Of a stretch of DNA of 64,000 nt, positions 2,898-62,279 are shown one piece after another. Numbering within the stretch: position 1 is the stretch's first letter; each line of letters begins with the position of its first letter. The translations under genes were made by a program, and so were the position numbers. Under the pieces are notes generated by a model. The model was given only the letters and a program-made list of their open reading frames with translations, had not been told where the DNA came from and ran no database searches. The stretch covers positions 1 through 64,000 of the forward strand of contig CAJWHW010000004.1 of the NCBI GenBank assembly GCA_913040915.1. The letters run 5' to 3'. The DNA is from an uncultured Fidelibacterota bacterium (GTDB taxonomy: Bacteria > Fidelibacterota > Marinisomatia > Marinisomatales > UBA1611).

Positions 2898-2929
2898 CTA
2901 ATACAATGCTAATAACTAGTGATTAGCAT
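2898..2929 (+). promoter_or_regulatory. Putative Pho box plus -10 element upstream of the phoB remnant and phoX-ppk2-nudix
   Basis: CTAAT(2898)-N6-CTAAT(2909)-N10-TAGCAT(2924); same geometry as at phoB, pstS and the Na/Pi transporter. Confidence 0.7.
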
Positions 2930-2938
2930 CACATCAAC

Positions 2939-3200
2939 ATGAATATCAAAAAGACACATATTTTAGTAGTTGAAAAAGAATCTGACATAACAGATCTTGG
3001 AGAATACACTCTTGAGACTAATGCATATAAAGTAACTAAATCCAACAGTGGTGTATCTTGGGAAAAAAGCTCGAGAATTAAAACTGGATCTTATTTTATT
3101 AGAGCTGATGTTTCTTGGGATTCATGGTTTGGACGTTTGTAGAATTCTGAAGGCAGATGCTGGCACAAATACAATATTTGCCATTACTCTTCCTTTGTAA
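2939..3200 (+). pseudogene. phoB: Frameshifted, truncated copy of the phoB receiver domain
   Basis: Frame of 2939 reads KKTHILVVEKESDITDLGEYTL (cf. KKHILIIEDEKDIAELLEYNL at 6145). After a shift near 3055-3060 it reads KKARELKLDLILLELMFLGIHGLDVCRILKAD (cf. KVARKQNPDLILLDLMLPGIQGLDVCRIIKTD), stopping at 3198-3200. No DNA-binding domain. Confidence 0.85.
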
Positions 3201-6100: not shown

Positions 6101-6132
6101 CTAATATATTTCTAACAAACCATTTATAATTT
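6101..6132 (+). promoter_or_regulatory. Putative Pho box plus -10 element upstream of phoB (autoregulation)
   Basis: CTAAT(6101)-N6-CTAAC(6112)-N10-TAATTT(6127); an overlapping TATAAT lies at 6125-6130. Confidence 0.75.
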
Positions 6133-6144
6133 TATTTTAATACC

Positions 6145-6840
6145 ATGTCAAAAAAACATATTTTAATTATTGAAGACGAAAAAGACATTGCTGAGCTTCT
6201 TGAATATAACCTTGGTGCTGGTGGATATTATACATATGTCGCTAATAATGGGGAAACCGGCCTCAAAGTGGCTAGAAAACAAAATCCGGACCTCATTCTT
6301 CTTGATCTAATGCTGCCTGGAATTCAGGGGTTAGATGTTTGTCGAATTATCAAGACTGATGAAGACACAAAAAATATCCCAATAGTAATGCTTACTGCAC
6401 TTGGGCAAGAAGAAAATATTGTGAAGGGCTTGGAATCGGGAGCTGATGATTATATTACCAAACCGTTCAGTTTTAAAATATTGTTAGCAAGAATTAAATC
6501 CGTTCTCCGTAGGGGTAAACTAGAAGAGCAAGACCTAAATAAAGAAATAAAAATTTTTGATGTAACAATTAAACCAAGAACAAGAGAAGTGATTATAAGC
6601 AATGCATTTATTGAACTAACTTTTACAGAATTTCAAATTTTACATTTATTATCATCACACCCTGGATGGGTTTTTACAAGGTATCAAATTATTGATAAGA
6701 TACGTGGAGATAATTACCCCGTAACAGACCGTTCCATAGATTTTCAAATAGTTGGGTTGAGAAAAAAAATGGGTGAATCTGGGTCTCTCATTCAGACCAT
6801 TCGTGGTGTTGGGTATCGATTTAAACCTGGGGATTCCTAG
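6145..6840 (+). CDS. phoB: Phosphate regulon response regulator (OmpR/PhoB family)
   Basis: Receiver domain (ED, DLMLP, GADDYITKPF) plus winged helix (IQTIRGVGYRF); directly upstream of phoR and pstSCAB-phoU. Confidence 0.9.
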   Translation: MSKKHILIIEDEKDIAELLEYNLGAGGYYTYVANNGETGLKVARKQNPDLILLDLMLPGIQGLDVCRIIKTDEDTKNIPIVMLTALGQEENIVKGLESGADDYITKPFSFKILLARIKSVLRRGKLEEQDLNKEIKIFDVTIKPRTREVIISNAFIELTFTEFQILHLLSSHPGWVFTRYQIIDKIRGDNYPVTDRSIDFQIVGLRKKMGESGSLIQTIRGVGYRFKPGDS

Positions 6841-7914: not shown

Positions 7915-8051
7915 ATTAAACCATTAATTATGTTATTCAAGCCAAAATGAAATAGTTTTTTGTCTGTTTTTTGTAATAACCTAACAATATCAACCCCGTC
8001 CAACCCTTACCCCGCCCACTCAATTAATATGGTCTGAAGTAACATTAATAT

Positions 8052-8105
8052 CTATTGTTATTCTAACTAAAGGCTAACGCTATTCTAATGCTCCAGTAGT
8101 AAAAT
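8052..8105 (+). promoter_or_regulatory. Tandem Pho boxes plus -10 element upstream of pstS
   Basis: Four 11-bp-phased half-sites CTATT(8052), CTAAC(8063), CTAAC(8074), CTAAT(8085), then N10 and TAAAAT(8100). Confidence 0.82.
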
Positions 8106-11697: not shown

Positions 11698-12357
11698 ATG
11701 TCAGAACAATTACAAAAAGAAATTCAAGATATAAATCAATTAATTCTAGAAGTTGGAACACGCGTTGAAGAAGCTGTAAGAAATTCTATGGATGCGCTTA
11801 AAAACATGGATTTTAAAAAAGCAAAAAAAATACAAAACGATGATGGTATTATTGATAGATTAGAAGTAGACGTAGAAGAATTGTGTTTAAAATGTTTTGC
11901 ATTGCATCAGCCAGTTGCGATGGATTTGCGTTATATTTTTGCTGTATCTAAAATTAATAATGACTTAGAAAGAATAGGTGATTTAGCAACTAATATTGCT
12001 GGTACCGTAGAAAACTTAAAAGACCATCCATCAGTAGTGATTCCTAATCGGGTTTATGCCATGAGCGTAACTGTGGGTGAAATGCTTAAGATTAGTTTGG
12101 ATGCTTTGGTAAATAAAAATGCTGTCATGGCACGAACTGTTTTAAACATGGATGATGATGTAGATAAAATTCATAACAGCATGTATGAATATGTACAGGA
12201 AAAATCTATTGATAATACAAAAGAAATGGGGCAATGGTTTTATGTTTTATCTATATCAAGATATCTTGAAAGAATTGCAGATCATACAACAAATATTTCT
12301 GAAGATGTTATTTACATGGTTGAAGGTGAGATTGCTCGCCATGGATATAAATCTTGA
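11698..12357 (+). CDS. phoU: Phosphate signalling protein PhoU
   Basis: QPVAMDLR, DLERIGD, YLERIADHTTNISE repeats. Confidence 0.95.
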   Translation: MSEQLQKEIQDINQLILEVGTRVEEAVRNSMDALKNMDFKKAKKIQNDDGIIDRLEVDVEELCLKCFALHQPVAMDLRYIFAVSKINNDLERIGDLATNIAGTVENLKDHPSVVIPNRVYAMSVTVGEMLKISLDALVNKNAVMARTVLNMDDDVDKIHNSMYEYVQEKSIDNTKEMGQWFYVLSISRYLERIADHTTNISEDVIYMVEGEIARHGYKS

Positions 12358-12382
12358 ACAAAAAATAAAAAGGAGTGATATA

Positions 12383-13324
12383 ATGAAAAAGAGTTTGATG
12401 TTTATGTGGGTGTATTTGTGTCTTGGTGCTTTTCTATTTGCCGGAACACAGACAAGCGGAAAGGTCTTCTACAATTACACTAGGAACCTAGATGACGGTA
12501 GCAATTCCTTTAACATTAAAAGAGGATACTTAACATTTGTAAATAATGCCACTGAAACGGTCTCATATAAACTAACCTACGATATTGGGTCTAATAATGC
12601 TGGAAGCGCATATACTGCATTTTTAAAAGTGGCTATGGTAAAGTGGGAAACTAGATTGGGAGTTGTTTCTATCGGTATGCAGGGAATGAACATGTACAAG
12701 ACCATGGAAAACACATGGGGACATCGTTTTATAGCAAAGGGTAGCATGGGCGCCTATGGTTATTCATCATCAGCGGATATAGGCATAGGGCTTGCCCGGG
12801 AACTTGGTCCGATCACAACCAGTGCCATGGTTACAAACGGTGGTGGCTACAAACGACCGGAAACCGATGCACACAAAAAACTATCCCTACACATGGTCTA
12901 TGGTCAACCACAACTAAACAAGGAAGATGGTTTTAATTGTGGCGGTAGTTTTTCAATGGAGCCGTATGATGTAGATGATTCGAGAACTGAGAATATAAAT
13001 GTAGTGGGGGTCTTTGGTGGATATGCAGGGCTTGGTTTCAGGGGTGGTGTAGAATTTGACACAAAGAAAAACGGTGAAACCATGGGGCAAATAATTTCCC
13101 TATATGGAACCTACGCCATATCTGATAAAATTTCTTTTTTGGCAAAAGTAGACCAAGTAGATGAAAATACTTCAGTAGATAAAGATGGAATCCAGGCTAT
13201 CATATTGGGGCTTCATTATGGCCTTGGTGAAGGTATGATAGTGGCACCAACATTTAGAATGACAAAACCAGAAAATGGAGACCCAGACAACTCAATTGTT
13301 GTGAACTTTGAATTCAAATTTTAG
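12383..13324 (+). CDS. Outer-membrane beta-barrel, putative phosphate-regulated porin
   Basis: AGGAG RBS at 12371 and ATG at 12383, signal peptide, F.IKRGYL motif typical of OprO/P-like porins, alternating beta pattern, C-terminal VVNFEFKF; last gene of the pst operon. Confidence 0.7.
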   Translation: MKKSLMFMWVYLCLGAFLFAGTQTSGKVFYNYTRNLDDGSNSFNIKRGYLTFVNNATETVSYKLTYDIGSNNAGSAYTAFLKVAMVKWETRLGVVSIGMQGMNMYKTMENTWGHRFIAKGSMGAYGYSSSADIGIGLARELGPITTSAMVTNGGGYKRPETDAHKKLSLHMVYGQPQLNKEDGFNCGGSFSMEPYDVDDSRTENINVVGVFGGYAGLGFRGGVEFDTKKNGETMGQIISLYGTYAISDKISFLAKVDQVDENTSVDKDGIQAIILGLHYGLGEGMIVAPTFRMTKPENGDPDNSIVVNFEFKF

Positions 13325-15369: not shown

Positions 15370-15401
15370 ATATTATTATCCTATTGTTAGGATTGTGTTA
15401 G
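15370..15401 (-). promoter_or_regulatory. Putative Pho box plus -10 element upstream of the Na/Pi cotransporter
   Basis: Minus strand CTAAC(15401-15397)-N6-CTAAC(15390-15386)-N10-TAATAT(15375-15370). Confidence 0.78.
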
Positions 15402-36554: not shown

Positions 36555-37604
36555 TTAATCTTGCATTTTTCTAATCCAATTTTTAACAAGCTCTACACCT
36601 TCTTTATGAACCAGTTTTCTGCCCAGTTCAGGCATCATGATTCCAGGGTCTGTTGATTCTATTCGATAAAGCATTATTGATTTATCTGGATGCCTTGGTA
36701 CAATGGTGTATTTCATATCACCCGAGCCCCGTCCTGCTGCAATAGGTGGTTTCATGATCCCTAATTTTGTTGGATCAGTTTCTTCAACATTCAAAAATAA
36801 ACCTGATGTTTCTCCTGGAGCACCAAACCGATGGCAATGGGCACAGTTAATATCAATCCAGGCCCGCGCTCGTTCAGCAACAGTTCCATCTTCGTGATTA
36901 TCATAATCGGGCGTATAAGGCAATTCAGAAATTGGAGGTAGCCCTTTTATCATATCTAATTCTGACCATTTCTGTAGTTGATTCATTATCTCATTCCCAT
37001 AATCATAGTCATTATTTAGTAGTCTTACTTTTGGTCCAATAGGTACCATTTTATTGTGACTGACATGACAACCTTTACATTGATTGAAGTTGGGGACACT
37101 ATATTTAAAATTGACTTGTTCGCCTGCAAAATTAGTAAATGACACATCCATTCTGTCACCGGCAATTTCTAAGAATGCATCTGACTGCTCTTCATCCCAA
37201 ATATAGGGGAAGCCCATCCAGCCATCGGGAGTATGAATAAGTAGCCTTGTCTCCATGAGACGAATATTTTCTTCAGGATATCTTAAATCAGCAGGGAAAT
37301 AAAATGTTTTAATCAGTATGGACTCAATTGGAAAATCAAAGGAACCGTCTACTTGGTAGATTAATTGTTCACCGGCTGGTAAAACAATAAATCTAGATTT
37401 TAGAGCATAATCAGAAAATAATTGAGCTGATATATTATATGGGACTATGCCATCTGCTGGCTGGTGTTGTGCTATCCGTCCTTCAAAGAAATTATAATCA
37501 GATAATTTAGGCTTTGCATATTTAAGTGGACTTATTCCAGAAAGAAGGGAAAATAGAATAAGAGAAAAAGCAAAGCGATGCACTTTTCTCAAAAAAATAA
37601 TCAT
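36555..37604 (-). CDS. SO2930-like diheme c-type cytochrome
   Basis: Two CxxCH motifs (CKGCH, CAHCH), LFSDYA.K.R, ETRLL, MMPELG; paired with a beta-helix gene. Confidence 0.8.
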   Translation of the reverse strand: MIIFLRKVHRFAFSLILFSLLSGISPLKYAKPKLSDYNFFEGRIAQHQPADGIVPYNISAQLFSDYALKSRFIVLPAGEQLIYQVDGSFDFPIESILIKTFYFPADLRYPEENIRLMETRLLIHTPDGWMGFPYIWDEEQSDAFLEIAGDRMDVSFTNFAGEQVNFKYSVPNFNQCKGCHVSHNKMVPIGPKVRLLNNDYDYGNEIMNQLQKWSELDMIKGLPPISELPYTPDYDNHEDGTVAERARAWIDINCAHCHRFGAPGETSGLFLNVEETDPTKLGIMKPPIAAGRGSGDMKYTIVPRHPDKSIMLYRIESTDPGIMMPELGRKLVHKEGVELVKNWIRKMQD

Positions 37605-38788
37605 TTTTTTATTTCTAAGATCAATTGGTGTTCACTACCACAATGATGCGGAGATAGATCTTCCGAAAAATTAGAAATAAATGGTGAATACCATTCTTTA
37701 AAATTGTGTTCTATGTCTAGATTTGTAAATCTAGCGCGCCCATTATTTTGAATACATAGTCCTGCTGTTATTTTTGGATCTTGCATACCATCATAAATAA
37801 TATCTGGTATGTTCCTTCCGTATTTAATTGCTAATAATTTTCCAATGTCATAATCTAAGGTGGGGAATCCTGGCCATCGCTCATAAACATTATTATATAT
37901 ATGAATATCTGCTGTGTAAGGATTATATAGAGAATCCTTAATTGTTTCTTCTGTCATGAAATAACTGACCACACCAGTTCCTACACTTTTATTATTTCGA
38001 ATTGTATTCCGGTAAATATATATATCTCTACAGGCTAAAATCATAATTCCTGTACCCGGGAGTACTTTTCCAACAATATTACCCGGGGGTGCGAAATTGA
38101 ATAAATTATTGGATTCAATAATGTTATTAAAAACATGAATATTCCCGCCTTTTTTCTGTATCAGGTCAGGTAAATCAAATACAAGAATACCCCCCGTATT
38201 ATTATAGGTATGATTTTTGTAGACTTTTGCATTATTTGAATTTTCAATTTCAATACCAGCCACATTATCAAAAACAGTGTTATAGCGCACAATGATTTCA
38301 TTAGACTGACCCACATAAATTCCGGCGTCAGAAGCACCGATCGAAAGTGAATGTTCAATTAACACATTATTACATTGCACTGGATATAGTCCATAGGCTC
38401 CATTGGTAGGTTTGGGACCTCCTGTCCATTCTGTTTTTAAGTGACGGAAAACAATTCCATCCGTATATTGAACCTTAATGGCATCACCTTTTGAATCTTG
38501 AACTGTAAAATTTTCCAATGTTATATTTTTGGAATTAGTAATGCTGATGCCTTGCGCTCCTTCTTCTTGATTGGAAAACTGCAGGATGGATTTATCCATG
38601 CCGGATCCACGAATAAACAAATTTTCTTTTCCTTCAATTGATAAAGTACCTAAAATTAGATGGACACCATCCGGCACTGTGATGGTGTCACCGAACTCTG
38701 CTAGAATGAATTGCATTTGCAGTTCTTTTTCCAGATTCGCATAAGCTATGCAAACTAAAAGATGAAGTGATATGGTTAAATGGGTCAT
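37601..38788 (-). CDS. Secreted parallel beta-helix protein
   Basis: GAYGLYPVQC, GASDAGIYVGQS, NVAGIEIENS, NNTGGILVFDLP repeats. Confidence 0.85.
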   Translation of the reverse strand: MTHLTISLHLLVCIAYANLEKELQMQFILAEFGDTITVPDGVHLILGTLSIEGKENLFIRGSGMDKSILQFSNQEEGAQGISITNSKNITLENFTVQDSKGDAIKVQYTDGIVFRHLKTEWTGGPKPTNGAYGLYPVQCNNVLIEHSLSIGASDAGIYVGQSNEIIVRYNTVFDNVAGIEIENSNNAKVYKNHTYNNTGGILVFDLPDLIQKKGGNIHVFNNIIESNNLFNFAPPGNIVGKVLPGTGIMILACRDIYIYRNTIRNNKSVGTGVVSYFMTEETIKDSLYNPYTADIHIYNNVYERWPGFPTLDYDIGKLLAIKYGRNIPDIIYDGMQDPKITAGLCIQNNGRARFTNLDIEHNFKEWYSPFISNFSEDLSPHHCGSEHQLILEIKK

Positions 38789-38900: not shown

Positions 38901-39617
38901 ATGAAGCCTACTCGTTTCCATTCCTGGAATGTTTCTCCTGAAGAAGCATCTGCAATTCAGCTCAATTTGCGTGATAAAGTTGAAGTTCAACCTTTGCCAA
39001 ATGATATTGAATTGGTGTGTGGGACATCTATATCTCATGATCCAAATACCAATACAGTGCATGTAGCATTAGTGGTCTCAAAATTTCCAGCGATGGAATT
39101 AGTAGAGTGTCACAGTCTATCAGAAGAAACCACATTCCCTTATGTTAGTGGTCTATTGGCATTTCGGGAAGCACCGTCTTTGATGACATTGCTAAAGAGA
39201 ATCCAGTACCAGCCTGATGTAATATTATTTCATTCTCACGGGCTTGCCCACCCCAGAAAGTTTGGCTTAGCATGCCATTTAGGTGTTTTATTTAATATAC
39301 CATCGATTGGTGTTGCAGACCGGGTTTTGGTTGGATACCATGATAATTTGCCGATAGAGAAAGGATGCTATGTCCCACTTAAGGATAACAAGCAAGAACT
39401 TGGACTTGTTCTGCGTACAAAGGAAGATGAGAATCCTATATTTGTTTCTGTTGGGCACAAATCGGATCTTTTCACTGCTATGGAATTAACTATGAAATGC
39501 ATCACGCGTTACCGGCATCCCGAACCCATACGCCAGGCACAATTAGCTGTGAGAGCCCAAAGAGATGGTGAAAATATTGATTTAGAACATGGTAGTAATC
39601 AAGCGTCTTTATTTTAG
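38901..39617 (+). CDS. nfi: Endonuclease V homologue with substituted catalytic residues
   Basis: PYVSGLLAFRE wedge, HG.AHPR.FGLA.HLG, SVGH and PEP.R.A retained; acidic metal ligands replaced (see findings). Confidence 0.85.
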   Translation: MKPTRFHSWNVSPEEASAIQLNLRDKVEVQPLPNDIELVCGTSISHDPNTNTVHVALVVSKFPAMELVECHSLSEETTFPYVSGLLAFREAPSLMTLLKRIQYQPDVILFHSHGLAHPRKFGLACHLGVLFNIPSIGVADRVLVGYHDNLPIEKGCYVPLKDNKQELGLVLRTKEDENPIFVSVGHKSDLFTAMELTMKCITRYRHPEPIRQAQLAVRAQRDGENIDLEHGSNQASLF

Positions 39618-39730
39618 TACATATTTTTATGCTCCAAATAAAACAATAACTATAGGAATTGTAAGTTTCTAGGATAGAGGTTAGAGTTTTAGCATAATGG
39701 TCACTTATTTCTTATTTTATATTTTAGTTA

Positions 39731-39762
39731 TTAATAATAACCTAACATTGTTTTTTTAAAGT
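39731..39762 (+). promoter_or_regulatory. Candidate Pho box plus -10 element upstream of arsC
   Basis: TTAAT(39731)-N6-CTAAC(39742)-N10-TAAAGT(39757); one mismatch to the consensus, identical spacing; AT-rich context. Confidence 0.55.
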
Positions 39763-39780
39763 AAAAATAAAGGAATAGAT

Positions 39781-40134
39781 ATGTCTGAATTCACCCTATA
39801 TCATAATCCAAGGTGAGGGAAAAGCAGGGGAGCCGTGTCGCTCCTCAAAGAAGAAAATATAGATTTCAAAATTATAGAATATTTAAAAACACCCTTAAAT
39901 AAAAAAGAAATCTTATCTATCTCTAAAAAACTGAACCTTCCTCCATCAGGTTTTGTGCGAAAGAATGAAGTAGAATTCAAAGATAATAATTTGAGTGATG
40001 AGCTTGATAATGATGAAACAATGGCAGAAGCAATCGCGAAATTTCCAAAAATTATGCAACGTCCCATTGCTGTTAAAGGCAACCAGGCAGTCATTGGACG
40101 TCCGCCAGAAAATGTTTTAATTTTAATTCGTTGA
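39781..40134 (+). CDS. arsC: Glutaredoxin-type arsenate reductase (ArsC family), probable selenoprotein with Sec12
   Basis: AAGGA RBS at 39770 and ATG at 39781. Reads MSEFTLYHNPR-[TGA 39814-39816]-GKSRGAVSLL in frame with the 39835 ORF. Keeps the VRK, QRPI and GRPPE arginines; 117 aa with readthrough. Confidence 0.88.
39827..39846 (+). promoter_or_regulatory. Bacterial SECIS-like hairpin within arsC
   Basis: GGGGAGC-CGTGTC-GCTCCTC: 7-bp stem (one G-U), starting 10 nt after the UGA, with a GU near the 5' side of the loop; locally GC-rich in an AT-rich gene. Confidence 0.75.
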
Positions 40135-40145
40135 GAGAAAAAAAC

Positions 40146-41255
40146 ATGAAAAAAACATTATTGCTTTTTACCCTGTTTATCATGTGCTGTGAGCCATTCG
40201 TTACCACCTTCCCAGACTCATCTGATGCAGTCATGTATGAAGCTACTGATAAGACCAATGTGGCTTATAGTGGAGAAAATATAAAAGTGATTACATGGAA
40301 CATCCGTTTTGGTGTTGGACGTTTTCCATTCTTTGGCGATTCCTGTGGTGATAGTGTTATTTTAGATGATGGTTCCATTGAAAAAATAATGTCTAACATA
40401 GCAGACTCCATTAATGCTATGAATGCTGATATTGTGTTGTTGCAGGAAGTGGATGTATCATCGAAAAGAACAGGCTACATAGATCAGGTTCAATATCTTT
40501 TGGACAATACCCACATGAATTATGGGTGTTACGCTTCCATGTGGAAGGCCGATTATATACCTAGTGGTGGCATTGGACGTGTTGATGCTGGGAATGCTAT
40601 TTTATCAAAATATAAACTTACAGATGCAGAACGAATCCAACTTAGGCTAAGAACAGATCAGGACGAGTTGATTCAGTATTTTTATTTAAGACGTAATATA
40701 TTAAAAGCAAAGGTCCCTGAATTATCACAAGGAGGAAAATCTTTTTATGCTGTGGATATCCATGCTACAGCTTTTGCAACAGATGATACCAAACAGCAGC
40801 ACATTGATAAATATGTTCAAACTCTAGCAACTATTCATAATAATGGTGATTATTTTGTTACCGGAGGTGATCTCAATTCTGTGCCACCTGGATCGGTTAC
40901 CGATTTTTGTGAAAGTGATATGTGTGAAGGAGATGATTACCACACTGAAGGTGCTGAAGAATATCATAAAGAGGGGAGCTATTTCGAAAACTTTGATGGT
41001 GAACCTGATCTGTTGCTTCCGCTTTATAACTCTTACAATGCGGCTATCGATTCGGCAGATGCAAATCTTCCTGGTCATTTTACCCATGGCCCGAGTACCA
41101 GTTATGAAATTAATAATATTAAATATGATAGAAAATTGGACTATCTTTTTACGAATAAAACTTGGGTAGATGGCGCATCCAGAACGCACCAAGCAGCCTG
41201 GGCACTAAGTGATCATATGCCGGTTAGCTCAATTATAAATATGGGAGGTGATTAA
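40146..41255 (+). CDS. Endonuclease/exonuclease/phosphatase (EEP) family lipoprotein
   Basis: Lipoprotein-like signal MKKTLLLFTLFIMCC; TWNI, LQEVD, GGDLN, LDYLF, SDH.P motifs. TTG at 40131 is an alternative start. Confidence 0.88.
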   Translation: MKKTLLLFTLFIMCCEPFVTTFPDSSDAVMYEATDKTNVAYSGENIKVITWNIRFGVGRFPFFGDSCGDSVILDDGSIEKIMSNIADSINAMNADIVLLQEVDVSSKRTGYIDQVQYLLDNTHMNYGCYASMWKADYIPSGGIGRVDAGNAILSKYKLTDAERIQLRLRTDQDELIQYFYLRRNILKAKVPELSQGGKSFYAVDIHATAFATDDTKQQHIDKYVQTLATIHNNGDYFVTGGDLNSVPPGSVTDFCESDMCEGDDYHTEGAEEYHKEGSYFENFDGEPDLLLPLYNSYNAAIDSADANLPGHFTHGPSTSYEINNIKYDRKLDYLFTNKTWVDGASRTHQAAWALSDHMPVSSIINMGGD

Positions 41256-42058
41256 TGGGCCGTATCATTTCTTCTATACTTCTTTCCTGTTATCTTATTG
41301 CAGAAACCAAAATTTGGGATTCCCATTCTGCTTACTTGCTTCCTCAAAAACGATGGGAAATAGGTTTGTTTCAGCCATTTAGATATGGCTATTCAGATAA
41401 ATTGGAATATAGTGTATATCCATTATGGTTTTTTGTCATGCCTAATATATCTTTGAAAAAGCCTTACAAGCCAATTGGCAGTTTCACAAGTGCATTTCAA
41501 TCTTCCTTGTTTTATCCAACGCCTTTTCTCAATATGATTGCTAAGAAAGATATTTTGGGTTTCATTTCTCCAGAATTTCAAATTCCACCCATGCTTGGTC
41601 TTTCTGGTACATTCCTTATATCTAATAATATAGCTGGGGTGGATTTAACTGTAAATGGTGGTTTAGACTTAGGCCTAGTGATGGGTGATTTGGATTATCG
41701 CTCCACTATTGATCTGCCCCTCGTGTATCATCGTTTGGGCGTGTATTACAACAATTGGGGAATGCATATGGGATTAGATATACAGAAAAGTATTTCATCA
41801 ATGATAGAAATTTTAGTTGATATTGATTACAGACTATTGCCTGAATTTCCTTTAAAACAGTTAGGAAAGAATTATTCTATAGAACATAAGCTTATTCTTA
41901 GTTGGAGAAAATCAGATCACTTCCGGTTAATAACCGGTTATAAATTTGTTATGGGAGAGTTTCCTTACGGTTCCGATATGCGATTACTACCCTATATACC
42001 CTTAGTTGAACGATGGGTACCCATAATTGAATTACAATGGGCTGGGAGAAAAAAATAA
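41255..42058 (+). CDS. Exported hypothetical protein, possibly an outer-membrane beta-barrel
   Basis: Signal peptide, alternating aromatic/glycine strands, terminal IELQW; TAATG coupling to the EEP gene. Confidence 0.55.
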   Translation: MGRIISSILLSCYLIAETKIWDSHSAYLLPQKRWEIGLFQPFRYGYSDKLEYSVYPLWFFVMPNISLKKPYKPIGSFTSAFQSSLFYPTPFLNMIAKKDILGFISPEFQIPPMLGLSGTFLISNNIAGVDLTVNGGLDLGLVMGDLDYRSTIDLPLVYHRLGVYYNNWGMHMGLDIQKSISSMIEILVDIDYRLLPEFPLKQLGKNYSIEHKLILSWRKSDHFRLITGYKFVMGEFPYGSDMRLLPYIPLVERWVPIIELQWAGRKK

Positions 42059-42075
42059 AATTAATCCAAATTCTA

Positions 42076-42798
42076 TTAGTTAAAAATTCGGTTTAACATT
42101 TCATATAATTCTGGGTTAGGGATTCCTTGCCCAAGATATATTTCATGCTGCTTGTTTTGCAGTATCATTTCCCAATGAAGATGAGATTGTTTTTTTGTCC
42201 CTAATGTGCTTGCTTTCATTCCAGTATTTCCTGACTTACCAATTACTTCATTTGCTAATACTTTTACTCCAGGTTTGATATTTTTTTCAATGTGGGATAA
42301 ATGCGCATAAATTGTAATGGTTCTAAACCCCGGAACAAGACCAAATCCATGATCAATAAAAATTGCTTTCCCTAATAAAACATTATTAAATATATCAGAA
42401 GGCGTTGAGCCCACTTTTCTGCTAGCCTCCAGCATGTTTACTCTAAAACTTGCAGGCACTTCCATATAACCATGATCTGCTCGTACGACAACACCATTTG
42501 CAACTGCATGCACTGCTGTTCCCCAATTTGCTAAAAAATCCACACCACGATGAATACCGCTTCGATTATCTCTAGGTGCATTTGGAAGATAACCAGACTG
42601 TTTTGGAACTTTGATATTTTTACATGGCAGAGCAAGTTGAAGAGAGTCAACCCACTTAGGATTAAAAATCTCTTTTTTGATTTCTTTGTCCTGTTTTACT
42701 GTGATTGAAGTTATAACGGAGAGACTTGAGTTTTTAGGACTCTCAGCTGATTGAGCAAGCATTATGGAGCCTCCAAATAATAGTATTTTTAATTTCAT
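42076..42798 (-). CDS. M23 family metallopeptidase
   Basis: HRGVD, YAHLS, IGKSGNTG, HLHWE. Confidence 0.9.
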   Translation of the reverse strand: MKLKILLFGGSIMLAQSAESPKNSSLSVITSITVKQDKEIKKEIFNPKWVDSLQLALPCKNIKVPKQSGYLPNAPRDNRSGIHRGVDFLANWGTAVHAVANGVVVRADHGYMEVPASFRVNMLEASRKVGSTPSDIFNNVLLGKAIFIDHGFGLVPGFRTITIYAHLSHIEKNIKPGVKVLANEVIGKSGNTGMKASTLGTKKQSHLHWEMILQNKQHEIYLGQGIPNPELYEMLNRIFN

Positions 42799-43226
42799 CT
42801 TTTTTGAGATAAAAGATGATCAATACCATTAATACATGCTGCAATAGGTTGCCCAGAGAATGAATTAATATATTTCCCTGTTAAAATAGATTCTGTTTCT
42901 TTACAACCTAGAAAAAATGGTTTTTCAAAGTAAACCATAGACGTTGGAATTTTAATCACATTTAATGTGTCTGCCACTGTCCAATCATACTTTGCCCAAG
43001 ATGTTGGAATCATCAATAATCCATCAGCCCAATTTCGGTTCCGTTGTAGAAAATTAATACATTGAAATTGCTTGTGGGTTTGGAAAAATTTTAGTTTTAT
43101 TTCTTTGCCATGGATATGCTTTCGAATGGCTTTATTTAATTTATCCAAAGTGAGCTGGTTCCCACTATCAGCGGATATTGTACCCAACAAATTCAGATTA
43201 GGGCCCTGTAGTATTAAAACATTCAT
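42795..43226 (-). CDS. Divergent type II dehydroquinase (AroQ)-like protein
   Basis: LILQGPNLNLLG N-terminus and FFQTH; the catalytic loop and VHLSN motif are not recognisable. Confidence 0.7.
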   Translation of the reverse strand: MNVLILQGPNLNLLGTISADSGNQLTLDKLNKAIRKHIHGKEIKLKFFQTHKQFQCINFLQRNRNWADGLLMIPTSWAKYDWTVADTLNVIKIPTSMVYFEKPFFLGCKETESILTGKYINSFSGQPIAACINGIDHLLSQKR

Positions 43227-43609
43227 TTTAAGGGAATCATATGACCCAAAATATACCCAATGATAATTCCGATCAGGAGGCCAAGAGTAACAATTCTGCT
43301 TTTAGCCAATTCGGTAGCATATCCCTTTTTGATTGCTATTCCTGAAACCACATAACCCATGGCGTTAAAAAACCAAAATACTGGTATAGAAACAATTTTT
43401 ATGATGATGGGGCCTACAATAGGTATCATCCCGATTAAAGCACCGAGACCAACGAACATCTGTGTAAAAATGCTAATTACAAATGTTACAAATACTACAA
43501 TCTTTTTATCAATACCAAAATATAGAGAAGTACAGATTCCTATAACTGCAATAATCCAACCAAGAATTTGTTTTTGGTATAGTTTTATAAATGATGATTT
43601 GTGATTCAT
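43223..43609 (-). CDS. Hypothetical membrane protein
   Basis: Several hydrophobic helices, IPIVGP motif; overlaps the next gene. Confidence 0.7.
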   Translation of the reverse strand: MNHKSSFIKLYQKQILGWIIAVIGICTSLYFGIDKKIVVFVTFVISIFTQMFVGLGALIGMIPIVGPIIIKIVSIPVFWFFNAMGYVVSGIAIKKGYATELAKSRIVTLGLLIGIIIGYILGHMIPLK

Positions 43610-44111: not shown

Positions 44112-44810
44112 TTATTCCTTAATTAGTGCTGTAATTGGAAACCAAGCAGTTTTAAGTGATGCTTGAATAATTCTTTTAGGTATTTGGTTTGAAACCCATA
44201 TTTCTCTTATATTTTCCTCTATTACTATCTTTTCCATAAAATAATCAGACTGCGCATTTATTTTTGTAGTATTATCAATGATTTTAAGATCAAGACGATA
44301 ATAGTCACAAAAAATAGAATCATTACCATTCCAAACATTAACAGTATCAGCCCAAAGAAATCGTGCATTTCCAATCATACCTTCATGTTCATAAGGTAAC
44401 CACTTTGTATCAATTCTTTCTGCTTCAATATTTTGTATTAAGGATAGGAGATTCAGAATAGATCTTGTCGAGTCTGGTAAATTAATTTTGTTCTTTTTAT
44501 CGTAAACTAAAACTCCAGAAGAATCTAAATGTGCATTCAATTTCTGTTTGAAGTCACCTTGCTGTATCTTTTTTCCCCAGGATTGTAAAATGTAAGAATT
44601 AGTATCATGCTGGGCCTCATAGTAATTCTTAGTTGGCCATATCAAGTCAAAAACTCCTATGCTATACGTGTCAAATTTAATTTTACCTGATTCATTAATG
44701 GTTTGCTCTACATTAGCTACTGGAAAACCCCAAATAGATATTTCATATTTTTGTCCAATGCACAGATTAAAAAGTATGGTTAAACTGTATACTCTTTTCA
44801 TGGTTTCCAT
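44112..44810 (-). CDS. Hypothetical exported protein (DUF3108-like)
   Basis: Y.IS.WGFPVA start of the mature region, beta-rich; operon position. Confidence 0.5.
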   Translation of the reverse strand: METMKRVYSLTILFNLCIGQKYEISIWGFPVANVEQTINESGKIKFDTYSIGVFDLIWPTKNYYEAQHDTNSYILQSWGKKIQQGDFKQKLNAHLDSSGVLVYDKKNKINLPDSTRSILNLLSLIQNIEAERIDTKWLPYEHEGMIGNARFLWADTVNVWNGNDSIFCDYYRLDLKIIDNTTKINAQSDYFMEKIVIEENIREIWVSNQIPKRIIQASLKTAWFPITALIKE

Positions 44811-49059: not shown

Positions 49060-50526
49060 ATGAGCAAAGGATTACCCAATAGAGATACTGATTTTTCTGC
49101 ATGGTATACCCAAGTGGTACACCGTGCCGGGTTAGCTGATTATGGCCCGGTGAAAGGAACCATGGTCATTAAGCCTTATGGTTTCCAATTGTGGGACAAC
49201 ATTAAACAAGCATTTGATAAAATGATTAAAGAAACTGGGCATGTGAATGCCTATTTCCCTTTGTTTATACCAAAATCATTTTTGGCTAAGGAAGCTAAAC
49301 ATGTGGAGGGCTTTGCAAAAGAATGTGCGGTAGTAACCCATACACGATTAAAAGCCGATGATGATTATGGTGTCGTGGTAGACCCAGAGTCAAAATTAGA
49401 TGAAGAAATTATTGTTCGCCCTACATCTGAAACTGTGATTTGGTCCATGTATAAAAAATGGATTCAATCCTATCGTGATTTACCATTACTCATAAATCAA
49501 TGGGCTAATGTAGTACGATGGGAAATGCGAACAAGGCTCTTTTTACGTACATCAGAATTTTTATGGCAGGAAGGTCATACAGCCCACGCGACAGCAGAAG
49601 AAGCCCAAAAAGAAACACTAAAAATTTTAGAGCTTTATCGTCAATTAGCAGAAGATTACTTAGCCGTTCCCGTTTTTATTGGTGTTAAAACAGAATCAGA
49701 AAAATTTGCCGGAGCAGAAAAAACATACTGTATTGAAGCAATGATGGGGGATAAAAGGGCATTGCAGGCAGGCACCAGTCATAATTTAGGTCAAAATTTT
49801 GCTAAAGCATTTGATGTAAAATTTCAAACAAAAGATAATAGAGAAGAATTAGTATGGGCCACAAGTTGGGGGGTTAGTACAAGATTAGTTGGTGCTATAA
49901 TCTTAACTCATGGTGATGAAAAAGGTCTCCGGCTGCCGCCTAAAATATCCCCTATTCAATTAGTGATAATCCCTATTTCACGGAATGAAGAACAGGAAAA
50001 TGCTGTAAAAAATTATTTAGCTCCACTTGTTGAATCATTAAAGAAGATAGGTATACGAGTTCACCAGGATTGGTCTGATAATTCTCCCGGATTTAAATTT
50101 AATGAATGGGAAATGAAAGGTGTCCCATTACGCATGGAAGTTGGCCCACGCGATGTTGAAAACGGTAATGTGATTGTAGCTAGACGAGATACCAGTGAAA
50201 AATCTTTTTTATCTAAAAAAGATGCTTTAGATAAAATACCAGAACTATTAACTCAAATTCAGCAGGGATTATTTAATCAGGCAAAACAATTTCAAAATAA
50301 AAATACTCATTCTGTTGAAAGCTATGATTCGTTGAAAAAAGTAATTGAAAAAGGAGGGTTTGTCCGTTGTGGGTGGGATGGGACTGATAAAACAGAAGCT
50401 AAAGTAAAAGAAGAAACCAAAGCAACTATTCGATGTATTCTTATGGATGAAAACCCGCATGGATTAACTTGTATCTATTCTGGTAAGCCCGCAAAACATG
50501 AGGTGATTTACGCTAAAGCGTATTGA
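49060..50526 (+). CDS. proS: Proline-tRNA ligase (archaeal/eukaryote-like type)
   Basis: RPTSET, QWANVVRWE, FLWQEGHT, QAGTSH.LGQNF, SWGVSTR, C-terminal AKAY. Confidence 0.97.
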   Translation: MSKGLPNRDTDFSAWYTQVVHRAGLADYGPVKGTMVIKPYGFQLWDNIKQAFDKMIKETGHVNAYFPLFIPKSFLAKEAKHVEGFAKECAVVTHTRLKADDDYGVVVDPESKLDEEIIVRPTSETVIWSMYKKWIQSYRDLPLLINQWANVVRWEMRTRLFLRTSEFLWQEGHTAHATAEEAQKETLKILELYRQLAEDYLAVPVFIGVKTESEKFAGAEKTYCIEAMMGDKRALQAGTSHNLGQNFAKAFDVKFQTKDNREELVWATSWGVSTRLVGAIILTHGDEKGLRLPPKISPIQLVIIPISRNEEQENAVKNYLAPLVESLKKIGIRVHQDWSDNSPGFKFNEWEMKGVPLRMEVGPRDVENGNVIVARRDTSEKSFLSKKDALDKIPELLTQIQQGLFNQAKQFQNKNTHSVESYDSLKKVIEKGGFVRCGWDGTDKTEAKVKEETKATIRCILMDENPHGLTCIYSGKPAKHEVIYAKAY

Positions 50527-58989: not shown

Positions 58990-59960
58990 ATATAGGTTTT
59001 ATTGGCGGTACTGGGCGCTGTGGCACATCTATTTTACGCAGAATTATAGCTTCCCATTCTCAGGTTGCGACCTTGCCGACTGAATACAAGATTACTATAG
59101 AGCCAGAAGGAGTCATAGATTATTACAATAGTTTTTCTAGTAGCTGGTCTCCCTATTTAGCAGATCAAAAACTAAAAAGATTAGAATCCTTTTTATACTC
59201 CCTTTCATCTAAATCAATAGTAGATAAGTCAATTCATTATTTATTAAGAATATTTTCAATATTTGGAATACCAATTACACCAAAAGTGTATTTAGATTTA
59301 GAACTTAGTAGATCAATACCTTCATACTTACATCATGTAGACACTTTAATTAATGAGCTAACAGACTTTACGTATTCTGCTAATAGATTGGGTATGGATA
59401 GTTACACATTACATCCAAAGATTAGATATGCTTCATTTGCAACCAAATCAGAACTCCAACCAGTTTTTAAAAAATTTATTTCAAATCTTATTAAAGATTT
59501 TTTAAAGCACCAGAAAAAAGATTTTTTTATAGAAGATAACACATGGAATATTCTCTTTGCTAATGATTTGTTACAAATTTTACCTGATGCAAAATTTATT
59601 TCGATTATCCGAGACCCAAGAGATGTAGTCACTTCGCTTGCAAACCAACCATGGATGCCAAATGATAAAAGTAAAGTAGCAATCATATATAATGATATAA
59701 TGTCCCATTGGCTTGAGATCCAAACAAAGTTACCAGTGAATCGTTGGATACAGATTAAATTGGAAGATTTAACCCGTACACCGGAAAAGGAGTTAAAAAA
59801 TATCTGTTCTTTCTTAGAGCTTCCATGGGAAGCTCAGTTACTTGAAATGGATTTAACAAAATCAAATTCAGGGCGATGGAAAAAAGAAATTCATAATCAC
59901 GAAACCAATCAGGTTTTGTCCCTACTACAAGAAAATATTGAATTATTGGGTTATGAATAA
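58974..59960 (+). CDS. PAPS-dependent sulfotransferase (second, divergent)
   Basis: FIGGTGRCGTS, HS, IRDPRDVV.S, EDL...PE, GRWK. Confidence 0.85.
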   Translation: MAKKLNIGFIGGTGRCGTSILRRIIASHSQVATLPTEYKITIEPEGVIDYYNSFSSSWSPYLADQKLKRLESFLYSLSSKSIVDKSIHYLLRIFSIFGIPITPKVYLDLELSRSIPSYLHHVDTLINELTDFTYSANRLGMDSYTLHPKIRYASFATKSELQPVFKKFISNLIKDFLKHQKKDFFIEDNTWNILFANDLLQILPDAKFISIIRDPRDVVTSLANQPWMPNDKSKVAIIYNDIMSHWLEIQTKLPVNRWIQIKLEDLTRTPEKELKNICSFLELPWEAQLLEMDLTKSNSGRWKKEIHNHETNQVLSLLQENIELLGYE

Positions 59961-61182
59961 GGCAAATGTTGCTCTTAGGGAATTCCCATTTCCTGCTCAT
60001 TGCGCGGTTGCAATATCCAGCGATATTGATAATGCAAGTTCTGTTGATTCTTTTAAAGAGATTATGAATTATTTTAATAGTTCATCTAATACAATCTTTG
60101 GTAATGGCTTAGGGTTAGAAGTTGGAAACAGTTTTTGGTTTTATACAAACTCAAACAAACCGCAACTTTCATATTTTGAAGGTATCACAACCAGAAAAAG
60201 TAAATTTGCACCTATCATTCGTGAATTATGGAAGAGTGGCCATATTGATACGATGCATTCTTGGGGTAATTTTGACTTGGGTGGCTTCGATAGAAGCCTG
60301 GCAGATGCTGGATTGAATGAGCTGCAAAAATGTTCAACAAAGATCCCTGTTTGGGTCAATCACGGAGTTGGTTTAAATCTTCAAAAACTAGGTAACTACC
60401 CTAATATGAAAGGAGATGATCCTAGTCATGATGCATATCATTTAGATCTATCGGTTGAAGCTGGTTGTGAGTATTTCTGGATCGGGAAAACAACCCATAT
60501 CATTGGTCAAAATTCACACCCATCAATAACAAACAAATTAAAATTAGGATTACAATGGCTTATTAAACGCACAAAATATTACGGGACTAAAGATCCAATA
60601 TATGATGATGGGAATGAACTTCTTTTTCCAATTGAATTTCGTGATGGTCGGAAAATGTGGGAGTTTATTCGATTTATTAATGCTTGGGGACAAGAACATA
60701 TTTTAGATATTAATGAACTTACCAAACAGTTGAATCCTAGTATTATCAAAAGGCTCATAAAAAACCAAGGTTATATGATATTGTATACACATCTCAATGA
60801 ACATGTTGATTTAGCGGGCTTGCCACAGTCATTAGTCAAAAATTTATTTTATTTACAAGAACATGTTGTGAATGGCAATATATTGATGGGGACGACATCC
60901 AGAATCCTTAAATACAAAGAAATCCGAGATTATCTATCTTACAAGATTGTTGAAACTGATAATGAAGTTAAAATTGAAGTTCAGGACTTTATAGAAACTC
61001 CAATTGGGGTCAAAAAAATTCAAGAGAATCAATTAATGGGAGTCACCTTCTATTGTGATACTCCGGAAAAAACCACCATATTACTGGGAAAAACCAAATT
61101 AGATTTTAAAATTAACCCTAAAGATGAGACAGGCAGACAGTCCATATCAATACCTTGGCAAAATCTGATTTATCCTAGTTAA
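59953..61182 (+). CDS. Hypothetical protein, polysaccharide deacetylase-like fold
   Basis: FPFP...A.AISSDID, H.DTMHSWG, WVNHG, YTHL metal-binding-like motifs. Confidence 0.55.
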   Translation: MNKANVALREFPFPAHCAVAISSDIDNASSVDSFKEIMNYFNSSSNTIFGNGLGLEVGNSFWFYTNSNKPQLSYFEGITTRKSKFAPIIRELWKSGHIDTMHSWGNFDLGGFDRSLADAGLNELQKCSTKIPVWVNHGVGLNLQKLGNYPNMKGDDPSHDAYHLDLSVEAGCEYFWIGKTTHIIGQNSHPSITNKLKLGLQWLIKRTKYYGTKDPIYDDGNELLFPIEFRDGRKMWEFIRFINAWGQEHILDINELTKQLNPSIIKRLIKNQGYMILYTHLNEHVDLAGLPQSLVKNLFYLQEHVVNGNILMGTTSRILKYKEIRDYLSYKIVETDNEVKIEVQDFIETPIGVKKIQENQLMGVTFYCDTPEKTTILLGKTKLDFKINPKDETGRQSISIPWQNLIYPS

Positions 61183-61184
61183 AA

Positions 61185-62279
61185 ATGGCGATTAAAATTT
61201 TATATATTTCTCCAGAAAATACAGTTGGAACTCTCACTCTATGGAAATTGGAGCATGAATCCCGTGGTAATTATTGTCGTACAGTAACATTTTTTAGATC
61301 ACCAAAAAATTTTAAAGAAGATATTTGTCTTAACCTTCCCTTTAATTTTACAAGAAGGAATATGTCTTTTCTTCGCAATCAGCTATATAAATATTACAGA
61401 GGTGAAGAAGGTTATTTTAAACCAAAAGAAGGTTATCCACCTGCTTGGCGGCCAGAAGGATGGCTTGATACTATGTTTTTTAAATTTAAAGATTTGTTAT
61501 GGAAGTCCATTATTAAAAAAGCAATTAAAGATTTTGATCTATATAATTTTGATGTGATTCATTATGAAAGTGGTTCAGATTTTTTAAAAAATGAATTTTT
61601 TGTTAAAGAAATACATCGTAGAGGGAAAAAGATAATCGCCCATTATCATGGAGAAGATTTACGCTCTAGTGGCGTTATGCCATTTTTGGATTCAGTCTCA
61701 AATTTAAATTTAACAAATGAAATAGATTTACTAGATAAACATCCAAATATTAATTATTTATTTTTACCATATGATACATCAAAATTTTCAGCTAAAAATA
61801 AATTAAGTGATACAATTGTTGTTTCCCATGCCCCTACAAACCGATTCTATAAAGGATCTAATTTTATTATTTCAGTTTGTAAAAAATTAGAAAAAGAAGA
61901 ATTAATTCAATTTGATTTGATCGAAAATCTACCACACTCAGTTACATTAGATAGAAAGTACAAATCAGATATTTTTATTGATCAAATAGGTGATAGAGGA
62001 GGCTGGGGTTATGGGATGAATTCCGTTGAGTCATTATCCATGGGAATTTGCACTCTAACAGAGATAAATGATCAATGCCATAATTTTATACCTGACCATC
62101 CTTTTATAAATATAAACAAATATAATCTAGAAGAAACGTTGAGAAACCTATGCCAAAATAAAGAAGAGATTATAAAAAAGGCACAGGAGGGCAGGAGGTG
62201 GGTCGTTAATCATCATGATATTAAACAAGTTGCTAAAAAACTTTACACTTATTATAGTATGATTGGATTGCCAGTTTGA
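61185..62279 (+). CDS. GT-B glycosyltransferase (GT4-like)
   Basis: HYHGEDLR, HAPTNR..KGS, DIFIDQ, GYGMNSVESLSMG. Confidence 0.82.
   Translation: MAIKILYISPENTVGTLTLWKLEHESRGNYCRTVTFFRSPKNFKEDICLNLPFNFTRRNMSFLRNQLYKYYRGEEGYFKPKEGYPPAWRPEGWLDTMFFKFKDLLWKSIIKKAIKDFDLYNFDVIHYESGSDFLKNEFFVKEIHRRGKKIIAHYHGEDLRSSGVMPFLDSVSNLNLTNEIDLLDKHPNINYLFLPYDTSKFSAKNKLSDTIVVSHAPTNRFYKGSNFIISVCKKLEKEELIQFDLIENLPHSVTLDRKYKSDIFIDQIGDRGGWGYGMNSVESLSMGICTLTEINDQCHNFIPDHPFININKYNLEETLRNLCQNKEEIIKKAQEGRRWVVNHHDIKQVAKKLYTYYSMIGLPV

Follow-up and report, generated by a model that had tools for sequence, protein, structure and literature searches.

Gene content of the locus

The subject of this work is a group of three genes, headed by an arsenate reductase gene (arsC), in a stretch of 64,000 nucleotides (nt) from an uncultured Fidelibacterota bacterium (contig CAJWHW010000004.1, positions 1 to 64,000; this whole stretch is referred to below as the window). 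The three genes are on the forward strand and they follow each other closely. The first of them, arsC (39781..40134), encodes a glutaredoxin-type arsenate reductase of 117 amino acids (aa) with selenocysteine (Sec) at position 12. It is followed by the gene for a 369-aa lipoprotein with the endonuclease/exonuclease/phosphatase (EEP) fold (40146..41255; PF03372 and fold search), which starts at 40146, i.e. 11 nt after the arsC stop, and then by the gene for a 267-aa protein of an unnamed family that is predicted to be an exported beta-barrel (41255..42058), the start of which overlaps the EEP stop in the sequence TAATG. Upstream of arsC there is a direct repeat resembling a Pho box, TTAAT-N6-CTAAC (39731..39746, forward strand), which has the same 11-bp periodicity as the boxes in a pho island elsewhere in the window, and a -10-like hexamer, TAAAGT (39757..39762, forward strand), which is separated by 10 nt from the box on its upstream side and by 18 nt from the ATG on its downstream side. 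An earlier reading of this DNA (the sequence-only reading) had reported this box with its hexamer, the 11-nt interval between arsC and the EEP gene and the TAATG coupling of the latter to the third gene, and all of these are present, the box having the geometry of the pho promoters. The relatives of the proteins of this region are found in metagenome-assembled genomes (MAGs) of Candidatus Marinimicrobia / Neomarinimicrobiota / Fidelibacterota, for which the name Marinimicrobia is used below.

The selenocysteine-containing arsenate reductase

The in-frame UGA codon of arsC (39814..39816, forward strand) is at the position of the catalytic cysteine, within the motif UGKS, and when this TGA is read as U the product starts MSEFTLYHNPRUGKSR. 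For scoring against protein families the U was replaced by C in the protein. The sequence then reaches 110 bits against the NCBIfam equivalog TIGR00014, the cutoff of which is 106.05, and 49 bits against Pfam PF03960 (cutoff 24); the Spx/MgsR and glutaredoxin models match it more weakly. The closest solved relatives are arsenate reductases (3f0i, 3.4e-19; 1i9d, 8.2e-13), and residues 1-116 of the protein align one-to-one with residues 1-116 of the solved ArsC 1i9d. From the translation and this alignment, U12, R60, R94 and R107 are all present; position 12 and the three arginines are what we take to be the catalytic residues of the R773 ArsC enzyme. The solved ArsC homologues carry a cysteine at the position which aligns with the UGA of the window. 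A TGA at codon 12 is found in all 26 relatives with an intact N-terminus, viz. 21 copies adjacent to an EEP gene and 5 more distant ones, and the protein sequence on either side of the TGA is conserved among them. The description of this gene in the sequence-only reading as a Sec-containing arsC is thus borne out. In comparison with the ArsC of plasmid R773 and E. coli type (1i9d, 3f0i, 3rdw), the protein has in common with these enzymes the length class, the fold family and the positions of the nucleophile (residue 12) and of three arginines (residues 60, 94 and 107); it is unlike them in that the nucleophile is a UGA-encoded Sec and that the gene lies outside an arsR-arsB/acr3 operon.

A different view of this protein would be that it is a Sec-containing thiol/redox protein, similar to Spx or YffB, which acts on something connected with the envelope module of the two downstream genes, and not an arsenate reductase. 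The persistence of the linkage to EEP/barrel within one clade is consistent with this view, and so are several observations which weigh against the assignment as arsenate reductase. The TIGR00014 cutoff is cleared by 4 bits only, with the Spx/MgsR and glutaredoxin models matching at a weaker level, and neither an arsenite pump nor ArsR is encoded nearby: no ArsR, ArsB or ACR3 domain was found by Pfam in any open reading frame (ORF) of at least 100 aa in the window. The sequence-only reading had remarked that no arsR, arsB or acr3 is adjacent, with which this result agrees, and the layout of a classical ars operon, with adjacent arsR and arsB or acr3, is not encountered within the window. With regard to selenium, the window also holds no tRNA and no Sel protein domain. 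However, solved arsenate reductases are by far the best matches of the protein (about 1e-19 to 1e-11, versus only 1e-3 for the Spx structure), R60, R94 and R107 stand at the aligned positions, and ArsC is without a signal peptide whereas the EEP protein and the barrel are exported. Considering all of these observations, we regard a thiol/redox protein other than an arsenate reductase as very unlikely.

Beginning 10 nt past the UGA codon (at base 14 if the U of this codon is base 1) is a SECIS-like (selenocysteine insertion sequence) hairpin (39827..39846, forward strand), with a 7-bp stem, the loop CGUGUC and a folding energy of -12 kcal/mol. Two features of such elements, viz. a position shortly after the UGA and a G in the apical loop, are present. 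The conservation of this hairpin was assessed by counting its pairs, as folded from the single sequence, over 25 relatives. Its inner five pairs are standard in 20-25 of the 25 sequences, one pair changes from G-C to A-U in 6 of them (double changes), and 78% of the cells are paired, versus 39-65% when the partner columns are slid. However, this evidence comes with caveats. When folded alone the hairpin has a z of -1.0, which is not exceptional; RNAalifold gave no consensus structure for the 25 segments downstream of the UGA; and the hairpin lies within coding sequence, in a region encoding GAVSLL, due to which the evidence from covariation is modest. A scan of 39500-42200 against Rfam at E<=1 gave no match. 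Six more distant Marinimicrobia that retain a Sec-arsC (loci L033, L036, L044, L049, L052 and L058 of the survey described below) have SECIS stems of other sequence (e.g. CAGAC…GCAGCTG) at a similar position.

The Sec-ArsC of the window is a member of the published selenoprotein family 'ArsC 1, UxxS', which has been in print since 2005/2008. An 'Arsenate reductase' UXXS family with 14 sequences is given in the Sargasso Sea selenoproteome (PMC1088965), and an 'ArsC 1' selenoprotein (pfam03960, UxxS) is represented by 77 sequences in the Global Ocean Sampling (GOS) data (PMC2398784). The window protein shares with this family its Pfam assignment (PF03960), the UxxS motif, which reads UGKS in the window, and the placement of a SECIS hairpin immediately behind the UGA, and there is no essential difference between the two; what is specific to the present case is that the lineage of the host, Marinimicrobia, and the genomic surroundings of the gene can be given. 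Neither neighbouring genes nor promoters are mentioned in the passages on the family in PMC1088965 and PMC2398784.

The possible Pho box upstream of arsC

A Pho box of the E. coli type consists of direct repeats with a periodicity of 11 bp, which replace the -35 element and lie about 10 bp from the -10. Boxes of this kind are seen in the pho island, which spans roughly 1.7-15.3 kb of the window, and they served as the reference for the arsC site: one ahead of phoX and the small receiver-fragment ORF that precedes it (2898..2913, forward strand), one upstream of phoB (6101..6116, forward strand), a triple box CTAAC-N6-CTAAC-N6-CTAAT upstream of pstS (8063..8089, forward strand) and one upstream of the Na/Pi cotransporter gene (15386..15401, reverse strand). 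The pstS array is the strongest in the window, and the pstS promoter (8052-8089, forward strand) can be read as three to four half-sites at 11-bp spacing, CTATT-N6-CTAAC-N6-CTAAC-N6-CTAAT. The pattern CTAAY-N6-CTAAY occurs 6 times in the window versus 0.71 expected, a number reached in 0 of 100 shuffles, and five of the six matches are in intergenic regions of the pho island (before the pre-phoX ORF, phoB, pstS with its overlapping triple, and the Na/Pi gene). All four pho-island promoters have a TANNNT hexamer exactly 10 nt after the box. As read from these sites, the Pho-box architecture of the genome, CTAAY-N6-CTAAY-N10-TAnnnT, is robust, and the window yields a clean Pho-box consensus for a Marinimicrobia genome, viz. 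CTAAY-N6-CTAAY at 10 nt from the -10.

The arsC site is similar to a PhoB-type Pho box in that it has two 5-bp repeats 11 bp apart and a -10-like hexamer 10 nt further on. Its downstream half, cCTAACa, recurs unchanged in both halves of the Na/Pi box, and 8 of its 10 core positions match CTAAC-N6-CTAAC. The relaxed pattern YTAAY-N6-CTAAC gives five matches in the window versus 0.62 expected, of which three are pho sites, one is at arsC and one, at 49873 on the opposite strand, is inside the coding region of the prolyl-tRNA synthetase gene. A scoring matrix was built from five pho-island sites; sites that equal or exceed the score of the arsC box and are also followed by N10 and TANNNT number five in the window, viz. 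the four pho promoters and arsC. By a rough calculation of our own, made post hoc, such a site would arise at this one promoter with a chance p of about 0.03-0.07.

However, other properties of the site argue against a functional box. In its upstream half a T replaces the C that is common to all ten pho-island half-sites, with a second deviation, a T, at a position that is C or T; the sequence-only reading had counted one mismatch in one half-site, and while the degenerate half-site is there, two of ten positions differ from CTAAC-N6-CTAAC and not one. Against the matrix the arsC box scores 8.78 bits versus 17.5-22.4 for the training sites (11.1-18.2 when each of these is left out in turn), and among 127,970 positions it ranks 27 with 16 columns or 13 with the half-sites only. 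When up to 2 mismatches to CTAAC-N6-CTAAC are allowed, the window contains 41 sites, and 13 of these fall outside the gene list. A 13-mer, TAATAACCTAACA, is common to the arsC promoter (39735-39747) and the far-upstream region of pstS (7974-7986). However, 75% of shuffles yield some 13-mer match in the window, due to which this match was down-weighted; it may be a chance match or the context of a lone PhoB half-site. The putative site thus differs from a PhoB-type Pho box in an upstream repeat that is off at the invariant C, in a low matrix score and in the absence of conservation shown in the next section. On balance, the arsC box appears to be moderately beyond chance, which is suggestive and not decisive.

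These results have to be considered in relation to an alternative in which an AT-rich promoter resembles a Pho box by chance, the arsC, EEP and barrel genes are under constitutive control or that of another regulator, and arsC came to be next to the EEP gene neutrally, via local gene loss in a syntenic region. The GC content of the window is 36% and that of its intergenic DNA 30%, roughly one site with at most 2 mismatches is expected per 3-4 kb, and the match at 49873 is an instance of the relaxed pattern within coding sequence. What this explanation accounts for less well is the exact N10 distance to TANNNT in a promoter-proximal position, a combination found otherwise only at the pho promoters. 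Further evidence on both sides of it comes from the relatives.

Conservation of the box and of gene order in relatives

Species-representative genomes were scanned with the EEP alignment, which gave 80 loci, and the three window proteins were then mapped onto these by tblastn. The barrel gene is downstream of the EEP gene on the same strand in 78 of the 80 loci, in 77 of them within about 150 nt and in one (L028) at about 0.8 kb; of the two unpaired loci, L032 is on a contig that ends inside the EEP gene and L071 has no match. The 78 paired loci cover Marinimicrobia, Cloacimonadota, a KSB1 MAG, Chlorobiota, Saprospiraceae/Bacteroidota and a gammaproteobacterial MAG. The distribution of arsC is different. 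It is found immediately upstream of the EEP gene in only 22 of the 80 loci (L001-L020, L051 and L055), all of which are of the Marinimicrobia type with an EEP identity of at least 57%, and the EEP/barrel pair is without an adjacent arsC in 56 of the 78 paired loci. The conservation of gene order that was proposed to be looked for is therefore seen for the EEP-barrel pair but extends to arsC only in the minority of loci given above. The occurrence of the pair in 78 of 80 loci, mostly without arsC, points to an independent module; as judged from this distribution, EEP/barrel is an autonomous, old and widely distributed two-gene module, and arsC is a lineage-specific addition to it in one Marinimicrobia subclade, within a syntenic region.

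In the six more distant loci named above, arsC is located 3-5 kb upstream of the EEP gene on the same strand, which suggests synteny and not functional coupling, and the genes upstream of arsC vary (nfi, an AsnC-type regulator and a GlnA-like gene are among them). Both of these observations favour the alternative of a neutral adjacency. However, the gap between arsC and the EEP gene, taken from the tblastn coordinates, is 10-15 nt in all 22 loci, and its retention over these loci down to 57% EEP identity is indicative of selection on co-expression. Due to the retention of this gap and the TAATG overlap, it is probable that a promoter ahead of arsC drives co-transcription of all three genes. 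A consensus scan found no forward-strand terminator between the arsC, EEP and barrel genes; a scan for sigma-70 promoters gave 12 sites in the region versus 13.4 in shuffles and is mute on an internal promoter. Clustering of the flanking ORFs in the 80 loci showed no third conserved partner, with no other neighbour present in more than 19 loci; the commonest of these are PALP (14 loci), an asparaginase/nitroreductase synteny (12-15 loci) and an AsnC-type regulator (10 loci). The window and locus L009 have genes for PAF-AH, a nitroreductase and an asparaginase upstream in common.

The conservation of the box that the sequence-only reading would lead one to expect is not seen, and the results on this point count against a conserved Pho box. 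Two of the 22 loci with an adjacent arsC (L002 and L015) were excluded, as their upstream sequence is too short; in the 20 others, for which 60 nt or more upstream of arsC are available, no site with at most 2 mismatches is present within 150 nt. The best sites of these relatives have 3-5 mismatches to the window consensus, which may not be the consensus of their genomes. In the 80 loci together (765 kb) the exact box patterns have 6 + 4 matches, none of them near arsC or the EEP gene. These matches were considered as Pho boxes of the relatives themselves and were rejected, being in coding or non-promoter positions. Further, among 55 loci that lack an adjacent arsC, a site with at most 2 mismatches within 200 nt upstream of the EEP gene is present in only one, which is the background level, the rate being 2e-4 per position. 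The four closest relatives carry another promoter-proximal sequence (…TTGTACCTTA…) where the window has its box, and this difference in promoter sequence is again what a chance resemblance would lead one to expect. As judged from its absence in relatives, the arsC box is an innovation or an accident of the lineage of the window. Considering the evidence from the sequence of the site and from the relatives together, we give the explanation by chance resemblance and neutral adjacency a probability that is only a little short of even.

The TTGTACCTTA-like element is located in L001, L018, L055 and L005 (where it reads GTCGTACTTTA) about 25-35 nt before the arsC ATG, just upstream of the ribosome-binding site. 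The window lacks this element, which may serve as a promoter or as the operator site for some other regulator. A gene for an AsnC/Lrp-type regulator is present divergently upstream in 10 loci.

The EEP lipoprotein and its predicted barrel partner

The EEP protein matches PF03372 with an E-value of 1.9e-16 across residues 49-357. In an alignment of 15 sequences, the motifs of which were read by eye, the residues N52, E101, D242, N244, D356 and H357 are invariant, and so are Cys15, the sequence P17-F18-V19 and three more cysteines. To judge from these residues, the lipoprotein is catalytically intact. A search with its structural model in Foldseek retrieves EEP enzymes at 1e-10 to 1e-8, headed by 4ruw (an uncharacterised EEP protein), nocturnin, CNOT6L, ANGEL2 and TDP2, with neutral sphingomyelinase lower. 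These fold matches point to no substrate class and no subfamily; the substrate would presumably be a phosphoester at the cell envelope. Some results detract from this picture. The lipobox has the family consensus L-G-C with C15 invariant, and the window copy, which reads F-I-M-C, is non-canonical. The model is of moderate confidence (predicted local distance difference test, pLDDT, of 65), with a good core and a low-confidence insert at 245-298. The EEP profile had 0 matches at E<=0.01 among PDB sequences, due to which the protein was placed structurally by the fold search only.

The third protein had been described in the sequence-only reading as exported and beta-rich, and its model, a predicted barrel after an N-terminal helix, is in accordance with this. 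The model (pLDDT 77; predicted template modelling score, pTM, 0.75) is all-beta, with about 12-13 long strands following the helix, and its matches in Foldseek are FapF, OmpG, OmpT, porins and COG4313, with template modelling (TM) scores of 0.4-0.55 and E-values of 1e-4 to 1e-3. The protein has no match in Pfam or NCBIfam, and for 30 members of its family a Pfam search at E<=1 gave stray matches only (Legionella_OMP in 3 and Pom in 1). The automatic name 'surface antigen D15' was rejected on the basis of this search. Relatives of the protein comprise 188 word-indexed homologues and 396 representative clusters at E<=1e-3. It is probably an exported, beta-rich outer-membrane barrel of no named family.

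As the pair is conserved across phyla and the barrel is of no known family, a prediction of their complex was made. The EEP-barrel complex scores 0.72, compared with 0.00 for the best of 3 controls; the mark for this score is reached by 116 of 157 solved complexes and by 2 of 215 mismatched pairs, counts which hold only roughly here as the alignments were made by the analysts. At least 86% of contacts are the same between runs, and the partner pLDDT is at least 82. The interface comprises residues 17-19, 69-74, 105-111, 136-145 and 175-178 of the EEP protein, among them the invariant P17, F18, V19, K107, G110, Y111 and R145, and residues 96-107 and 149-154 (the two longest loops) and 237-252 of the barrel. 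The model supports binding of the two proteins, and a complex between them is probable. Further, since loops that follow the E101 strand take part, the model suggests that the barrel docks near the catalytic face of the EEP protein, and as long loops are by convention extracellular, the complex would be exposed at the surface. A point of little weight on the other side is that a search for longer relatives of the barrel protein found no EEP-barrel fusion.

Complexes of an outer-membrane lipoprotein with a beta-barrel are known from LptD-LptE, from RcsF with OmpA/C/F and from SusC-SusD. The present pair resembles these in that a lipoprotein gene is found beside a barrel gene and that the confident interface of the model uses the N-terminal tether of the lipoprotein. 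It is unlike them in that the barrel, with about 250 aa and roughly 12-14 strands, is small and of an unnamed family, that there is no sequence relationship, and that the lipoprotein is an EEP-fold enzyme. What is new here is modest, viz. the EEP lipoprotein and the beta-barrel as a conserved, probably interacting envelope module. This pair, an uncharacterised envelope enzyme system found over several phyla, is the more durable result of the present work, and if the model is correct it would be a new, phylogenetically broad enzyme complex of lipoprotein and barrel, independent of the Pho question.

Interpretation of the arsC-EEP-barrel unit

Based on the above results, the explanation which we favour, and which we consider probable, is that a known Sec-ArsC and a separate envelope module are found together with a possible Pho box specific to this strain. 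According to it, two functionally separate things would be joined in one same-strand unit of three genes. The first would be a cytoplasmic ArsC of the glutaredoxin type with a Sec nucleophile, the recoding of its UGA being aided by the downstream hairpin; this enzyme most likely reduces arsenate which enters the cell via phosphate transporters. The second would be the EEP lipoprotein and the small outer-membrane barrel, which probably form a complex at the envelope, where the N-terminal tether of the lipoprotein and the loops by its catalytic glutamate would dock on loops of the barrel. In one Marinimicrobia subclade arsC would have come to sit 10-15 nt upstream of EEP/barrel, and in the present genome the degenerate Pho box, being at the correct distance from the -10, may permit PhoB to add induction by phosphate starvation.

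The sequence-only reading went further than this and proposed an integrated system of phosphorus, arsenic and selenium, viz. a PhoB-induced operon in which the Sec-ArsC detoxifies the arsenate taken up with phosphate and the EEP/barrel pair serves to scavenge organic phosphate at the surface of the cell. The identity of the box geometry to that of the four pho promoters of the genome and of the downstream half-site to both halves of the Na/Pi box, the tight packing of the genes with no predicted forward-strand terminator between them, and the phosphoesterase fold of the lipoprotein are all consistent with such a system. There is also a precedent for the induction of arsenic genes by phosphate limitation: as described in the relevant part of PMC11665274, phosphate limitation induces arsenic detoxification genes in Crocosphaera, a marine cyanobacterium. 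The two cases are alike in that both link low phosphate to genes for arsenate detoxification; however, for Crocosphaera there are expression data and the gene concerned, arsB, is for an efflux pump, whereas in the window there is a motif before a reductase gene in a heterotroph of another phylum.

However, the integrated system is difficult to reconcile with other results. The box is weak and is present in none of the 20 relatives, the EEP/barrel pair mostly occurs without arsC, and its upstream regions have a box in the single case out of 55 referred to above. Further, the pair lies outside the pho island, which already encodes PhoX and a GDPD protein, and the EEP fold gives no substrate. In our view the integrated system is unlikely. 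Nothing ties the EEP/barrel pair to phosphate, and its proposed role as a phosphate-scavenging pair is not upheld. Of the proposal that arsenate detoxification is wired to PhoB, the part which stands is the pho-type geometry, while the degeneracy of the box and its absence from relatives tell against the rest. Control by PhoB may operate in this strain, a possibility which we place clearly below even; in the light of the relatives, it is not a conserved property of the arsC-EEP-barrel operon. The more specific claim, that the Sec-ArsC was newly recruited to the Pho regulon via remodelling of its promoter and is co-transcribed with an EEP-barrel complex which releases phosphate from phosphoesters of the envelope or the exterior, so that phosphorus scavenging, arsenic and selenium would be coupled, is in our estimate distinctly unlikely.

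The sequence-only reading had also supposed that a link of phosphorus, arsenic and selenium is undescribed. This is not the case for its components, as the Sec-ArsC had been published (PMC1088965 and PMC2398784) and the induction of arsenic genes at low phosphate is described for Crocosphaera in the passages of PMC11665274 referred to above. A text search of the literature, mostly at the level of abstracts, returned no description of a Pho box before arsC in Marinimicrobia or of the trio of arsC, EEP and barrel genes. The arsenic-selenium part of the link is real but known, and the phosphorus part comes from one degenerate, unconserved site. If the link to the Pho regulon is true, then a heterotrophic deep-ocean lineage wires arsenate detoxification to phosphate stress as cyanobacteria do, and the ability to withstand arsenate in low-phosphate water would depend, in a hidden way, on the supply of selenium.

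Other features of the window

The pho island contains genes for a GDPD protein, a rhodanese, PhoX, PPK2 and a NUDIX protein, followed in our description by a PhoB-type response regulator, a PhoR/PnpS-like kinase and PstSCAB, and by PhoU, a second PhoU-like protein and the Na/Pi cotransporter. The top NCBIfam match of the response regulator (6145-6840) is PhoB, with 235.9 bits, which is under the equivalog cutoff of 296. The small ORF (2939-3145, forward strand) behind the Pho box that precedes phoX, a box of perfect geometry, encodes 67 aa which resemble the N-terminus of the window PhoB (40% identity over 42 aa, E = 1e-8). It has the appearance of the remnant of a truncated receiver domain, or of a small receiver fragment transcribed ahead of phoX. 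Also inside the pho island is an ORF without a Pfam match (12185-13324, forward strand), the called start of which overlaps the end of phoU. Further ORFs without a Pfam match are present at 43223-43609 and 44112-44810 on the reverse strand and at 59938-62279 on the forward strand; the lengths of the Pfam-less ORFs of the window, inclusive of the one in the pho island, are 128-414 aa. Just upstream of nfi and arsC, the region 36555-38788 (reverse strand) encodes a right-handed beta-helix / NosD-like protein and then a protein with a weak cytochrome-c motif.

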